A stretch of DNA of 64,000 nucleotides from Escherichia coli (lineage in GTDB: Bacteria > Pseudomonadota > Gammaproteobacteria > Enterobacterales > Enterobacteriaceae): the NCBI RefSeq assembly GCF_013315695.1, contig NZ_CP054353.1. One strand, 5' to 3'. The notes below the pieces were generated by a model. That model saw only the letters and a list, made by a program, of their open reading frames with translations. It did no database searches and was not told the DNA's origin. This document shows, piece by piece, positions 25,156-57,088 of this stretch. How positions within the stretch are numbered: position 1 is the first letter of the stretch; each line of letters starts with the position of its first letter. The position numbers were made by a program, and so were the translations under genes.

Positions 25156-25176
25156 ATCACTGAACATTTGTTTTAA

Positions 25177-25207
25177 CCACGGGGCTGCGATGCCCCGTGG
25201 TTTTTTA
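25177..25207 (+). terminator. Rho-independent terminator after brnQ
   Basis: CCACGGGGCTGCGATGCCCCGTGG hairpin followed by TTTTTTATT. Confidence 0.75.
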
Positions 25208-26604: not shown

Positions 26605-26762
26605 TCCTTGCGTTCTGTAAGCCGGTTCAGGAGGAAATCCTGATCCGGCTATTCCGAAAGTTATCCGCCCCCGTCCTCCTCCCCCAAATATCCTTCAGAT
26701 GATGAGTGATCCTGCATTAGGCTATGGCAAGGTGATCAGATTTTCATCACAGGGGAATTATG

Positions 26763-28577
26763 ATGTTAAATGCATGGCACCTGCCGGTGCCCCCATTTGT
26801 TAAACAAAGCAAAGATCAACTGCTCATTACGCTGTGGCTGACGGGCGAAGACCCACCGCAGCGCATTATGCTGCGTACAGAACACGACAACGAAGAAACG
26901 TCAGTAGCGATGCATAAGCAGCGCAGTCAGCCGCAGCCTGGCGTTACCGCATGGCGGGCGGCGATCGATCTCTCCAGCGGGCAACCTCGGCGGCGTTATA
27001 GTTTCAAATTACTGTGGCACGATCGCCAGCGTTGGTTTACACCGCAGGGCTTCAGCCGAATGCCGCCAGCACGACTGGAGCAGTTTGCTGTCGATGTCCC
27101 GGATATCGGCCCACAATGGGCTGCGGATCAGATTTTTTATCAGATCTTCCCTGATCGTTTCGCCCGTAGTCTTCCTCGTGAAGCTGAACAGGATCATGTT
27201 TATTACCATCACGCAGCCGGACAAGAGATCATATTGCGTGACTGGGATGAACCGGTCACGGCGCAGGCGGGCGGATCAACGTTCTATGGCGGCGATCTGG
27301 ACGGTATCAGCGAAAAACTGCCGTATCTGAAAAAGCTCGGCGTGACGGCGCTGTATCTTAACCCGGTGTTTAAAGCCCCCAGCGTACATAAATACGATAC
27401 AGAGGATTATCGCCACGTCGATCCGCAGTTTGGCGGCGACGGAGCGTTGCTGCGTTTGCGACACCATACGCAGCAGCTGGGAATGCGGCTGGTGCTGGAT
27501 GGCGTGTTTAACCACAGTGGCGATTCCCATGCCTGGTTTGACAGGCACAATCGTGGCACGGGTGGTGCTTGTCACAACCCCGAATCGCCCTGGCGCGACT
27601 GGTACTCGTTTAGTGACGATGGCACGGCGCTCGACTGGCTGGGCTATGCCAGCTTGCCGAAACTGGATTATCAGTCGGAAAGTCTGGTGAATGAAATTTA
27701 TCGCGGGGAAGACAGTATTGTCCGCCACTGGCTGAAAGCGCCGTGGAATATGGACGGCTGGCGGCTGGATGTGGTGCATATGCTGGGGGAAGCGGGTGGG
27801 GCGCGCAATAATTTGCAGCACGTTGCCGGGATCACCGAAGCGGCGAAAGAAACCCAGCCGGAAGCGTATATCGTTGGAGAGCATTTTGGCGATGCACGGC
27901 AATGGTTACAGGCCGATGTGGAAGATGCCGCCATGAACTATCGCGGCTTCACATTCCCGTTGTGGGGATTTCTTGCCAATACCGACATCTCTTATGATCC
28001 GCAGCAAATTGACGCCCAAACCTGTATGGCCTGGATGGATAATTACCGCGCCGGACTTTCTCATCAACAGCAACTGCGTATGTTTAATCAGCTCGATAGC
28101 CACGATACTGCGCGATTTAAAACGCTGCTCGGTCGGGATATTGCGCGCCTGCCGCTGGCGGTGGTCTGGTTGTTCACCTGGCCTGGTGTACCATGCATTT
28201 ATTACGGTGATGAAGTGGGGCTGGATGGTAAAAACGATCCGTTTTGCCGTAAACCGTTCCCCTGGCAGGTGGAAAAGCAGGATACGGCGTTATTCGCGCT
28301 GTACCAGCGAATGATTGCGCTGCGTAAGAAAAGTCAGGCGCTGCGTCGTGGCGGCTGTCAGGTGCTGTATGCGGAAGATAACGTGGTGGTATTTGGCCGC
28401 GTGCTGAATCAGCAGCGTGTACTGGTGGCAATCAACCGTGGAGAAGCCTGTGAAGTGGTGCTACCCGCGTCACCGTTGCTTAATGTTGCGCAATGGCAAC
28501 GCAAAGAAGGCCATGGGCAACTGACAGACGGGATTCTGGCTTTGCCTGCCATTTCGGCTACGGTGTGGATCAACTAA
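26763..28577 (+). CDS. malZ: Maltodextrin glucosidase
   Basis: 604-aa GH13 [18 protein letters not shown]... Confidence 0.95.
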
Positions 28578-28763
28578 AGCATCTGTTTTATTTATTACGT
28601 CGTAGTCACCAGCCCTGACACTACGCAGCGCAAAAAAGCTGCTCAATGTCAGGGCTGAGTTTGTTAAATATTTGTCCCGTTCGATATGAGCGATTTTTGG
28701 TATTCTTTGCCCATGAGGTTATGTACAACATGCTCCAGGATAACCCTGTAGTGGAGCAAAGAT

Positions 28764-30209
28764 ATGACAATTTCAAATTCGAATTTATTGAAACCGTTTA
28801 TTCCTGGTACTGAGTTGCCACCTTTTAAAGAGGATGTTTTTTCTAAAACAGAAGAACAATTTAAAAAAAGCCCCCATGGCAAATTGCTTTTCATTTCCGG
28901 AAATGAAAACTTAGTAAACATTTCAGCGGAAAAAATCGATGAAATAAAAAATAGCAAAGATTTCTTTTCAAATATTGTAAATATAATAATTTTAATCATT
29001 AAGCATCCTGATAAAATTCTGCCCATTCTTCATGGTTGTCCTGCAGAGTCCATCGAACTCATTAAGAATGCGAAACGAACGGGGCAATGGTCATATGAGA
29101 TGACTGATAAGAACGGGCAGAATATTGAAGTGTCCTATATTTTCACTGATACCATAGATGATAAATCTGATGGAAAATTATGCTTAAAAATCTGTAACTC
29201 TTGCAACCAAAATGATTCTAGTACACATGAATATAAAATAGATCATCAACAGTTGAAAAATCACATAAGGCAACTTGAGGAGTGGGCCCTTCTTGAAAAG
29301 TTTTATGATAACAACGCTTATTATTCTAAACGTACAAAACAATTAGAGAAGAAAATTGCCGATGCGGGGTTTATAACAGGGAAGGTTAATGCCGATAACT
29401 TTAATGTAAAAGAGTTTAAAGACGATATAGCCTCGATGCTTTGTGAACAGCCCCCCATGCGTACACACCAGATTTCTTCATCCGGATACTTATCTGCCGA
29501 TAAAGTGCCTGATCTCTATAAGACAAATTTGAAAGACGCGCAGAGAGATCTGAAAACAACACCGGTTGACATCGATGGTGTTAGTCTAAAATCAAAAACT
29601 CGGGAAAAAATTGCGGAAAAAATTGCGAAAAAAACTGAGGAAAAAATTGCGAAACAAAATGCGAAGACCATTGAGGAGAAGAATAGTGAAAAAAACAAGA
29701 AAGAAACAAATCCTGAGGATAATTTTGTCTTAAAATTCTCACCGGACGAAATCAATGAGATGCTCCTGGATTACAGCGATGAAGAACAAAAAAAATTAAG
29801 ACCTTTTTTCACTAGTGATCACATCTATTGTTTGTTTGATGCTTTTAGTCAGGGTTTGCATAATGTTGCTCGTAATGGCAGTCCACGGTATGCAGGTTTA
29901 CTACATCAAATAGCATCCAACTCTGAGATATTACAAGATTTTGATCAACAATTGTTCTGGCGCACGTTTTCAGGAGGAGTCTTCCATCGACGTATCTCTG
30001 TGAACAGCGAGCCAGAAAAGACAGATGTATGGCGATTCAGTACACAATTTGATTTTCCACATATAAATGACAACGGGGAGTTGTCCAGAACGGTACTCAT
30101 GTTCGAGGGGGTTGCTGAAAGCAACTTTAAAGATATCGCCAATCATTCCAGCGAATGTTTTTCTTACAGTTGTTATGCCGCTCCGCTGGATGCGAATGCT
30201 AAAAAATAG
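28764..30209 (+). CDS. Hypothetical 481-aa protein in an AT-rich islet; internal Lys/Glu-rich repeat; C-terminal region with a candidate papain-like (OTU-like) cysteine peptidase Cys motif
   Basis: Long uninterrupted ORF with GGAG 8 bp upstream of the ATG; visibly AT-rich codon usage unlike flanking genes; not part of the K-12 malZ-acpH junction as I recall it; motif SDHIYCLFDAFSQGL (Cys356) and downstream FPHIND (His433); function is inference only. Confidence 0.7.
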   Translation: MTISNSNLLKPFIPGTELPPFKEDVFSKTEEQFKKSPHGKLLFISGNENLVNISAEKIDEIKNSKDFFSNIVNIIILIIKHPDKILPILHGCPAESIELIKNAKRTGQWSYEMTDKNGQNIEVSYIFTDTIDDKSDGKLCLKICNSCNQNDSSTHEYKIDHQQLKNHIRQLEEWALLEKFYDNNAYYSKRTKQLEKKIADAGFITGKVNADNFNVKEFKDDIASMLCEQPPMRTHQISSSGYLSADKVPDLYKTNLKDAQRDLKTTPVDIDGVSLKSKTREKIAEKIAKKTEEKIAKQNAKTIEEKNSEKNKKETNPEDNFVLKFSPDEINEMLLDYSDEEQKKLRPFFTSDHIYCLFDAFSQGLHNVARNGSPRYAGLLHQIASNSEILQDFDQQLFWRTFSGGVFHRRISVNSEPEKTDVWRFSTQFDFPHINDNGELSRTVLMFEGVAESNFKDIANHSSECFSYSCYAAPLDANAKK

Positions 30210-30229
30210 TGACGCCGGAGCTTGAAGTT

Positions 30230-30811
30230 TCAGAGCGCCTTGCGTGACGCCTGCGCCATCATCCGCGGATAAAACTGCCAGAAGCGGGTTTCGAGGGCGG
30301 CATAATGTGCGTTTAAATCGTACCAGGAGTCACGCAGGGCATCCAGACGTGGGCGACGGCTTGCCATGCCGTTTAACACGTTCTGGATGAAATCCATATC
30401 GCGATAGCGCACCAGCCACTGCTCTGACCACAAGTAATTGTTCAGATTGATAAAACGTGGCGGTGAGTCCGGCAAAATCGTCATCACTTGCTCGCGGGCA
30501 TAACAGACAAATTCCTGTAGCGGAAAGTCCGGCGACAGCTGCGACCAGTGGCGGGAAAGAAAGTGATCCCACATGACATCCAGCGTAATAGGCGCAACGC
30601 GGCGCGTTTCACTACGAAACCATTCCCGTGCTTCGCGGACTTCCGGCAGATTGTCGGTTAGTACATCAATGCGCCGATGCATATGAATGCCAGCCACGAC
30701 GTCGGGCGGAAAACTTTCTTCAGGATTTCCGCGTACGAAATCAGCCAGTAAATTGCCGGAAAGCGAGCTTTCCGCGAGATGGGCTAAATGCAGGTGAGCT
30801 AAAAAATTCAT
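30230..30811 (-). CDS. acpH: Acyl carrier protein phosphodiesterase AcpH (YajB)
   Basis: 193-aa [28 protein letters not shown]... Confidence 0.9.
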
Positions 30812-30903
30812 CGATTATATTCTATCCAAAGGGGGGTAAAGGTTGCAGGGAGAGCGCCCCGGCACTAGACTACCCGCCTCTTATTTTAGTCTGAGTCAGT
30901 GTC

Positions 30904-31974
30904 ATGCGCGTTACCGATTTCTCCTTTGAATTGCCCGAATCCCTGATTGCCCACTATCCCATGCCTGAACGCAGTAGCTGTCGTTTACTGTCGCTGGACG
31001 GGCCGACGGGCGCGCTGACGCACGGTACTTTCACCGATTTACTCGATAAGCTCAACCCCGGCGATCTTCTGGTTTTTAATAATACCCGTGTGATCCCGGC
31101 GCGCCTGTTTGGGCGTAAAGCCAGCGGCGGCAAGATTGAAGTGCTGGTTGAGCGTATGCTCGACGACAAACGCATTCTTGCGCATATTCGCGCCTCGAAA
31201 GCGACAAAACCTGGCGCAGAACTGTTGCTGGGCGATGACGAAAGTATTAACGCAACAATGACCGCGCGCCACGGCGCACTGTTTGAAGTCGAATTTAATG
31301 ATGATCGTTCGGTACTGGATATCCTCAACAGCATCGGCCATATGCCGCTGCCGCCGTATATCGACCGTCCGGACGAAGACGCTGACCGCGAACTTTATCA
31401 AACCGTTTATAGCGAAAAACCGGGCGCGGTTGCAGCCCCGACCGCTGGTCTGCATTTTGACGAACCTTTGCTGGAAAAATTACGCGCCAAAGGCGTGGAG
31501 ATGGCGTTTGTCACCCTGCACGTTGGTGCGGGCACCTTCCAGCCGGTGCGCGTCGACACCATTGAAGATCACATCATGCACTCAGAATACGCTGAAGTGC
31601 CGCAGGATGTGGTTGACGCAGTGCTGGCTGCGAAAGCGCGTGGAAATCGGGTGATTGCGGTTGGCACCACCTCTGTTCGCTCGCTTGAGAGCGCGGCCCA
31701 GGCGGCGAAAAACGATCTCATCGAACCGTTCTTTGACGATACCCAAATCTTTATCTATCCCGGCTTCCAGTACAAAGTGGTCGATGCGCTGGTGACTAAC
31801 TTCCACCTGCCGGAATCGACGTTGATTATGCTGGTTTCGGCCTTTGCCGGTTACCAACACACCATGAATGCCTATAAAGCAGCAGTAGAAGAGAAATATC
31901 GCTTTTTTAGTTACGGTGATGCGATGTTTATCACGTACAATCCGCAGGCAATTAATGAGCGCGTCGGGGAGTAA
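30904..31974 (+). CDS. queA: S-adenosylmethionine:tRNA ribosyltransferase-isomerase
   Basis: 356-aa [22 protein letters not shown]... Confidence 0.95.
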
Positions 31975-51000: not shown

Positions 51001-51053
51001 TATGTGGTTGTAACGTCGCATCTGGTCAGATGCGACGTTTGCCGCATCCGACA

Positions 51054-52518
<1,465 letters not shown>

Positions 52519-52685
52519 TGTTCCTCCTCACCCGCAACCACTCCGGGTGTTCAATAAGGCTATCCCTTAATTGTGCATGCTGTTGCGACTATGCACAATT
52601 AAGGGATACGTCCTGGTGCAGGACTGTTGGTTATTTAACTTTGCAGGTATTATGCTTCGCATCAAAAATGAAGGTAGAGGAAAAG

Positions 52686-53199: not shown

Positions 53200-53320
53200 C
53201 ATGTCAGATGCGGCATGAACGCCTGATTTGGCCTACAAAGGTTTATAACTCAGGAACTTTGTAGGCCTGGTAAGCGTAGCGCAGCAGGCAATTTCGCCTC
53301 GCTTTTATGCCTGGCGAATT
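53200..53320. repeat. Palindromic extragenic repeats (REP/IRU-like)
   Basis: GCCTACAAAGGTTTATAACTCAGGAACTTTGTAGGC palindrome plus flanking GC-rich palindromes between yajQ and yajR. Confidence 0.4.
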
Positions 53321-56904: not shown

Positions 56905-57052
56905 TATGACCTCTTTGATTAACTGAATGAAATCGTAGGGAGTCGATCTCATGCATAATACGGCTATCAACCGTGTGATTAATTTATGTGCATATGCTCA
57001 CTCTGTCAAGAGATACGGTTATTAGCCGTATCTCTGATCTCAGACAATAAAA

Positions 57053-57075
57053 AAGGTGCCGTAGCACCTTTTTTA
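57053..57075 (-). terminator. Rho-independent terminator of the cyoABCDE operon
   Basis: AAGGTGCCGTAGCACCTT hairpin flanked by A-run and T-run (reads as a terminator on both strands). Confidence 0.75.
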
Positions 57076-57088
57076 TAGAGAGGTTGTA

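Follow-up and report, generated by a model that had tools for sequence, protein, structure and literature searches.

The malZ-acpH junction and its islet

In the window analysed here, the whole of a 64-kb stretch of Escherichia coli DNA, the gene malZ (26760-28577, plus strand) ends in the TAA stop codon at 28575-28577 and converges with acpH (30230-30811, minus strand). The coordinates of malZ and its stop are those of the ORF list and of the RefSeq annotation of the identical record NZ_OZ547117.1. The two stop codons are separated by an islet of 1,652 bp (28578-30229) with a low GC content of 28-40% and a single ORF, an orphan gene of 481 aa on the plus strand (28764-30209) that is preceded by the ribosome-binding site GGAG at 28753-28756.

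The orphan protein belongs to no family in Pfam, NCBIfam or PADLOC, and makes up one full-length cluster among 1.84 billion representatives at 50% identity. No full-length relative is less than 89% identical to it, and every one for which a source is named comes from Escherichia or Shigella. Distant homologues of the protein, which would have allowed covariation in the neighboring hairpin to be followed, were sought among the same 1.84 billion representatives and none was found. Inside the orphan gene, at 29594-29677, lies a 12-nt (four-codon) tandem repeat resembling AAAAAYTGNGRA and encoding repeats of the EKIA/KKTE type, the copy number of which probably explains the lengths of 469-493 aa seen for orphan alleles in other strains.

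The left end of the islet carries a palindrome on the coding strand of malZ, which forms a hairpin of 48 nt beginning 32 nt past the malZ stop, after an AT-rich spacer at 28578-28609. The outer arms, CAGCCCTGACA at 28610-28620 and TGTCAGGGCTG at 28647-28657, pair perfectly over 11 bp with seven G-C pairs. Nested between them is an inner hairpin (28625-28642) with a 5-bp stem, GCAGC/GCTGC (28625-28629 and 28638-28642), closed by the 8-nt apical loop GCAAAAAA at 28630-28637, and the two stems are separated by a 4x4 internal loop in which CTAC (28621-28624) faces TCAA (28643-28646). Directly downstream is the T-rich but interrupted tail AGTTTGTTAAATATTTGT (28658-28675), with a G/A polymorphism at 28659. 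The arm positions and sequences and the nested stem given in the initial annotation proved exact when the letters were read again, and its description of a long nested stem-loop just 3' of malZ is borne out by coordinates, sequence and folding alike.

Stability of the hairpin

Folding of the region 28578-28700 as plus-strand RNA gives -37.9 kcal/mol (z = -3.6 against shuffled sequences), and as minus-strand RNA -38.5 kcal/mol (z = -4.8), while single-stranded DNA from 28600 to 28670 folds with -17.3 kcal/mol (z = -4.9). The 48-nt hairpin alone accounts for -29.9 kcal/mol as plus-strand RNA. On the minus strand the hairpin is more stable, at -37.0 against -29.9 to -31.4 kcal/mol, with a lower stem of 14 bp, since the internal loop is closed there by G.U pairs. 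Hence the sequence itself gives no preference to the strand of malZ.

A perfect 11-bp inverted repeat alone is not rare by chance. Dinucleotide shuffles of the 64-kb window contain on average 0.7 such repeats with a loop of at most 40 nt, and 42% of shuffles have at least one. The composite two-tier structure is well beyond chance.

Several other perfect hairpins occur in the window. That at 25175-25202 is a textbook terminator, with a perfect stem of at least 11 bp and the tail TTTTATTG. At 57047-57076 the A-run and T-run (ATAAAAAAGGTGC/GCACCTTTTTTAT) lie within the stem itself, and the perfect hairpins of at least 11 bp at 51012-51039 and 53230-53267 have no T-tails. A longer perfect palindrome is found at 52561-52608, with 18-bp arms TATCCCTTAATTGTGCAT/ATGCACAATTAAGGGATA, a 12-nt spacer, a folding energy of -26.9 kcal/mol and a T-tail on neither side.

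Origin of the islet

A 2-kb junction query matched 5,424 of 5,426 complete E. coli genomes, at full length in only 1,126, which places carriage of the islet at about 21% of complete genomes, O157:H7 included. The 186-bp region between malZ and the orphan gene, used as a query on its own, was found in 1,127 genomes, in one copy each and always on the chromosome at this same locus, and was absent from all the remaining genomes of the set. In K-12 and strain Ec1119 (RefSeq annotation) the malZ and acpH stop codons are only 4 bp apart, with the junction AACTAA-CGTT-TTATAA. The palindrome is present in none of the approximately 4,300 islet-free E. coli genomes, these two strains included, nor in four other Escherichia lineages with the same 4-bp junction, which comprise three species representatives, E. 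albertii among them, and one divergent record labelled E. coli. The initial annotation had proposed comparison with islet-free malZ-acpH junctions as the way to tell backbone from islet DNA, and since the stops lie 4 bp apart in such genomes and the palindrome is missing there, it is islet DNA. The empty sites, each a 4-bp junction, exclude a backbone origin.

The one partial match, HS-02 (NZ_CP172818.1), was considered as a remnant or intermediate state and rejected, as the 1.1 kb of near-pure A/T sequence between its malZ and acpH is an assembly artefact. This stretch, at positions 1500-2620 of the locus, looks like the islet after a faulty long-read assembly rather than like a biological variant, and acpH is annotated there as an extended ORF.

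The ancestral state was examined by retrieving AcpH from one genome per species, which returned 80 loci, and the orphan gene is in none of them. A compact junction occurs also in Siccibacter, where the stop codons overlap, and in Pseudenterobacter, where the gap is 10 bp. Together with the compact junctions of the other Escherichia lineages, this indicates that the compact state is ancestral and that the islet is therefore an insertion in part of E. coli; an ancestral islet that was deleted in K-12 is ruled out by the same junctions in E. albertii, the three other Escherichia lineages, Siccibacter and Pseudenterobacter. The AcpH loci of 76 other Enterobacteriaceae also show that the malZ-acpH junction is a family-wide hot spot at which genes are inserted; the gap measures 0.8-1.6 kb in Salmonella arizonae, Leclercia, Citrobacter and Enterobacter. 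At most loci of Citrobacter, Enterobacter and Kosakonia, malZ does not lie within about 4 kb downstream of acpH.

The right junction of the islet and a recoding of acpH are common to all 20 islet-bearing alleles examined. The last two codons of acpH (30230-30235) read CTC TGA in 20 of 20 islet alleles, as opposed to TTA TAA or TTG TAA in islet-free E. coli and other Escherichia, so that three substitutions fall within six bases exactly at the insertion junction and leave the protein unchanged (Leu-stop). The common right junction and recoding point to a single origin, and the locus is best read as the product of one insertion that took place within E. coli and parted the convergent stops of malZ and acpH at their 4-bp gap.

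Variation among islet alleles

Otherwise the islet alleles have diverged, with identities as low as 89% for the orphan protein and 95% for the intergenic region. Across seven diverse intact alleles the arms of the hairpin are unchanged, while the A-run of the loop varies from five to seven and 11 other intergenic positions are variable. The 22 bases of the outer arms are identical in all nine other intact alleles that were read, including two records from the lowest identity bands among the approximately 1,126 genomes, and short queries centered on the left and right arms match 1,125 and 1,126 genomes, respectively. Changes in the lowest-band records comprise C28609T, T28643A, a shorter loop, T28640G and G28659A, with none in the outer arms; T28640G, found in one genome, breaks the inner stem. 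The spacer at 28578-28609 also varies, with A/G at 28594, T/A at 28596 and a T indel after 28602.

Among the seven alleles, no change was found in 32 stem bases where about 2.5 would be predicted from the flanking rate, giving P ~0.08 by our own estimate. This invariance is only weakly significant, and fits constraint on the stem without proving it. Since the stem does not vary, it shows no covariation.

A second, weak hairpin, CGTTCGATATGAGCG at 28678-28692 followed by ATTTTTGG up to 28700, is called terminator-like on the plus strand. Position 28681 is A rather than T in five of seven aligned intact alleles and in four of four further alleles, which removes a pair, and this second hairpin (28678-28700) is probably not conserved as a structure.

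Comparison with intrinsic terminators

Like the intrinsic terminators of E. coli, the malZ hairpin is a stable, GC-rich stem on the transcribed strand soon after a stop codon, accompanied by a T-rich stretch and with ample stability (-30 kcal/mol). It differs from them in its length of 48 nt, its 4x4 internal loop, its 8-nt apical loop and its interrupted tail. That tail, AGUUUGUU, follows the stem directly and has five U/T among its first eight bases, although it opens with A and G. Scored with our own script in the style of d'Aubenton-Carafa, the T-tail reaches 1.2 when counted from 28658, or 2.75 from 28661 if a bulged 2-bp extension to 28660 pairs, against 4.14 for the reference terminator at 25175-25202. 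A terminator consensus scan of 28300-31000 did not report the hairpin and called only the weak one at 28678-28692; the scan requires a compact hairpin with a loop of 3-8 nt and an uninterrupted stem, which the malZ hairpin does not have.

These scores agree with the judgement of the initial annotation that the element is not a canonical intrinsic terminator. Its statement that a trailing U-tract is lacking went too far, since the tail AGUUUGUUAAAUAUUUGU is T-rich, although the run is indeed interrupted.

In Salmonella, Citrobacter, Leclercia and Enterobacter with other genes between malZ and acpH, malZ is followed by compact terminators of the form AAAAAGGCCCGC...GCGGGCCTTTT. The islet hairpin occupies the same site, just past malZ, as these bidirectional terminators. 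They are, however, short GC stems set between an A-tract and a T-tract, whereas the islet hairpin has neither tract and no sequence in common with them.

A proposed role at the 3' end of the malZ mRNA

The stem-loop is real, non-canonical and present in single copy, and as a gene-end element it is of an ordinary kind. We propose that at the 3' end of the malZ mRNA it has two effects, weak termination of a non-canonical type and protection from 3' exonucleases, a reading to which we give an even chance, and in which we infer every step at the RNA 3' end. Transcription of malZ would cross the palindrome and yield an RNA that, 32 nt beyond the stop, folds into a two-tier hairpin of approximately -30 kcal/mol. 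This may act as a weak and leaky intrinsic terminator through the imperfect UUUGUU tract but, more importantly, would block exonucleases that proceed from 3' to 5', such that transcripts ending farther downstream, through Rho or read-through, could be trimmed back to the stem. The hairpin might also partly insulate the AT-rich orphan gene from malZ transcription.

Position and strand fit such a role, with the hairpin placed 32 nt past the malZ stop and then followed by its T-rich tail, and a second palindrome nested in the first suggests folding more than a protein operator with two half-sites. The role is favored as well by a stability far above that of shuffled sequences and by outer arms that are unchanged where flanks and loop vary. 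Where other genes part malZ from acpH in relatives, a hairpin does directly follow malZ. In K-12, malZ and acpH are reported to form a convergent excludon with overlapping transcripts (PMC12288877). The 4-bp gap of islet-free K-12 leaves no room for a terminator, and it is with the separation of malZ and acpH by the islet that a 3'-end element after malZ would have become relevant. No sigma-70-like promoter was found between the hairpin and the ATG of the orphan gene, so this gene may depend on read-through, which would fit a leaky element. Weighing against a gene-end role are the poor performance of the hairpin by the usual measures of a terminator, the different make-up of the terminators that follow malZ in relatives, and the greater stability of the minus-strand RNA. 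The weak statistics of stem invariance and the lack of covariation count against it too.

The REP hairpins found between malE and malF are 3' stem-loops that stabilize mRNA, and transcripts terminated by Rho are trimmed back to hairpins of this kind. The islet hairpin resembles those of malE-malF in being stable, intergenic, devoid of a proper U-tract and located 3' of a gene of the mal regulon. As with mRNA-stabilizing 3' stem-loops, it is placed where it could block 3' exonucleases and uncouple the upstream from the downstream message. Unlike REP elements, it is present in one copy per genome and has no similarity to repeated families. Among the possibilities raised in the initial annotation, an RNA stability element appears the most reasonable reading. 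A search of the literature for the locus tags and for malZ 3'-end data returned nothing usable, although studies employing Term-seq in EHEC have been published.

Searches for related elements

With one copy in each of 1,127 genomes, the palindrome is not a REP/BIME or ERIC element or another repeated palindrome or MITE, and within the 64-kb window the arm sequence is found only here. A search of 28400-30400 against Rfam 15 gave three matches at chance level (17-23 bits where the gathering thresholds are 70-90; E of at least 1.4) and no family. Phages contain no match to the islet, and a plasmid origin was rejected, the two matches to "plasmids" being 4.9-Mb, chromosome-sized records that are presumably chromosomes filed as plasmids.

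The gapped palindrome pattern matched no viral contig and 49 metagenome contigs, of which 29 are the same E. coli locus and 20 are unrelated. The latter were rejected as homologues, as only the 11-mer arms are common while loops and flanks differ, and several are ordinary terminators. Some metagenome contigs (Ga0307968 and others) carry an unrelated element with the same 11-mer arms and another loop, in two copies 169 bp apart, apparently within a longer tandem array with further AGTCAGGGCTT motifs.

Alternative explanations

The chief alternative is that the hairpin is a neutral passenger. It may have come along with the foreign DNA, perhaps as a terminator or 3' hairpin belonging to a gene that preceded the orphan gene in the donor, without being selected for any role in E. 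coli, and its invariance would then reflect a young, single origin. We consider this a possible but rather unlikely account. It is consistent with the single origin of the islet, all alleles of which have the same junctions and the same recoded end of acpH, with the weak statistics of stem invariance, with a structure that is not terminator-like by standard measures, and with the tolerance of a broken inner stem in one genome. The alleles are, however, fairly diverged (protein to 89%, intergenic region to 95%), and yet the 22 outer-arm bases show no change; nor did protein representatives, viral and metagenome contigs, phages or plasmids yield a donor sequence.

The greater stability of the minus-strand hairpin (-37.0 kcal/mol, with a 14-bp lower stem and z = -4.8) would suit a role on that strand, where an RNA hairpin might stop or stabilize antisense transcripts and so shield malZ from antisense transcription. 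Such transcripts could be due to read-through of acpH or start at spurious promoters within the AT-rich islet. A 120-codon minus-strand ORF at 28664-29026 ends 7 nt before the hairpin and might be taken as its user. The minus-strand tail GUGACUACGACGUAAUAAAU has no U-tract, however, and the ORF lies opposite the 5' part of the conserved 481-aa gene, with a low-complexity translation of the kind that an antisense frame would give. It is open in most alleles but broken in O157:H7 EDL933 and two metagenome alleles, and was rejected as the gene served by the hairpin; it is probably not a gene. We regard a minus-strand role as quite improbable.

Slightly less probable still is that, in line with the protein binding site suggested in the initial annotation, the palindrome works as DNA, as a putative operator for a regulator of the orphan gene approximately 107 bp upstream of its ATG. 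The idea draws on a perfect 11-bp dyad upstream of a gene with no recognizable promoter, the arms being invariant across the alleles inspected. The half-sites are nevertheless 37 bp apart from center to center, with a second palindrome nested between them, and wide spacing around a nested palindrome is what a folded structure, and not a dimer operator, typically shows. Against it as well, the islet encodes no regulator, and neither the rest of the window nor the E. coli genomes contain the motif a second time, which leaves no visible regulon.

The initial annotation had also suggested a footprint of the insertion event, which here would mean the structured end of a mobile cassette, similar to integron attC, IS200/IS605 or MITE elements, that delivered the orphan gene. 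The hairpin lies 32 nt from the left islet junction, and GTTAAAT at 28663-28669 fits the attC core consensus GTTRRRY; as in attC and IS200/IS605 hairpins, an imperfect nested palindrome stands near the edge of an inserted single-gene unit with a GTTRRRY-like heptamer nearby. The resemblance goes no further, for the islet has no inverse core site, second structured end, recombinase, target duplication or other copies. An integron attC site was rejected, as the complementary RYYYAAC is missing on the other, left side of the stem and the hairpin lies upstream of the ORF rather than downstream, and no attC-like site was found at the right end of the islet. An IS200/IS605-type or MITE-like element was rejected likewise, given the lack of structured or inverted-repeat ends on both sides, the single copy and an ORF belonging to no transposase family; the islet encodes neither a transposase nor an integrase. 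At the right end of the islet nothing comparable to the hairpin exists, and when the two ends were compared, neither terminal inverted repeats (P = 0.67 against shuffles) nor direct repeats (P = 0.93) emerged. Local alignments of the left and right islet ends with the 3' end of acpH were no better than shuffles (P = 0.38 and 0.11), so that a target-site duplication or a decayed acpH 3' end was rejected. By eye, GTTTTAT can be seen at the left edge and GTGACGCC at the right. The element is single in every genome that carries it, with no second copy in the 5,426 genomes, none on genuine plasmids or phages and no homologous copy in viral or metagenome contigs outside the malZ-acpH locus, and the empty site has no hairpin that could have been the target. 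This reading is already largely refuted and we hold it to be highly improbable. That the hairpin is the surviving end of an undescribed mechanism for single-gene cassettes, in which a hairpin guides single-strand integration between convergent stops and the Leu-stop of AcpH is kept by recoding, seems more improbable again.

Significance for the malZ-acpH locus

For the annotation of E. coli genomes, the present analysis means that about 21% of them have an islet-borne stem-loop after malZ, at the position where malZ of K-12 abuts acpH. The transcriptional overlap of malZ and acpH described for K-12 may consequently not apply to strains that bear the islet. Should the hairpin indeed set the 3' end of malZ, the locus would provide a small case of horizontally acquired DNA that brings its own transcript-end signal, and this acquired signal would rewire the convergent gene pair malZ and acpH.
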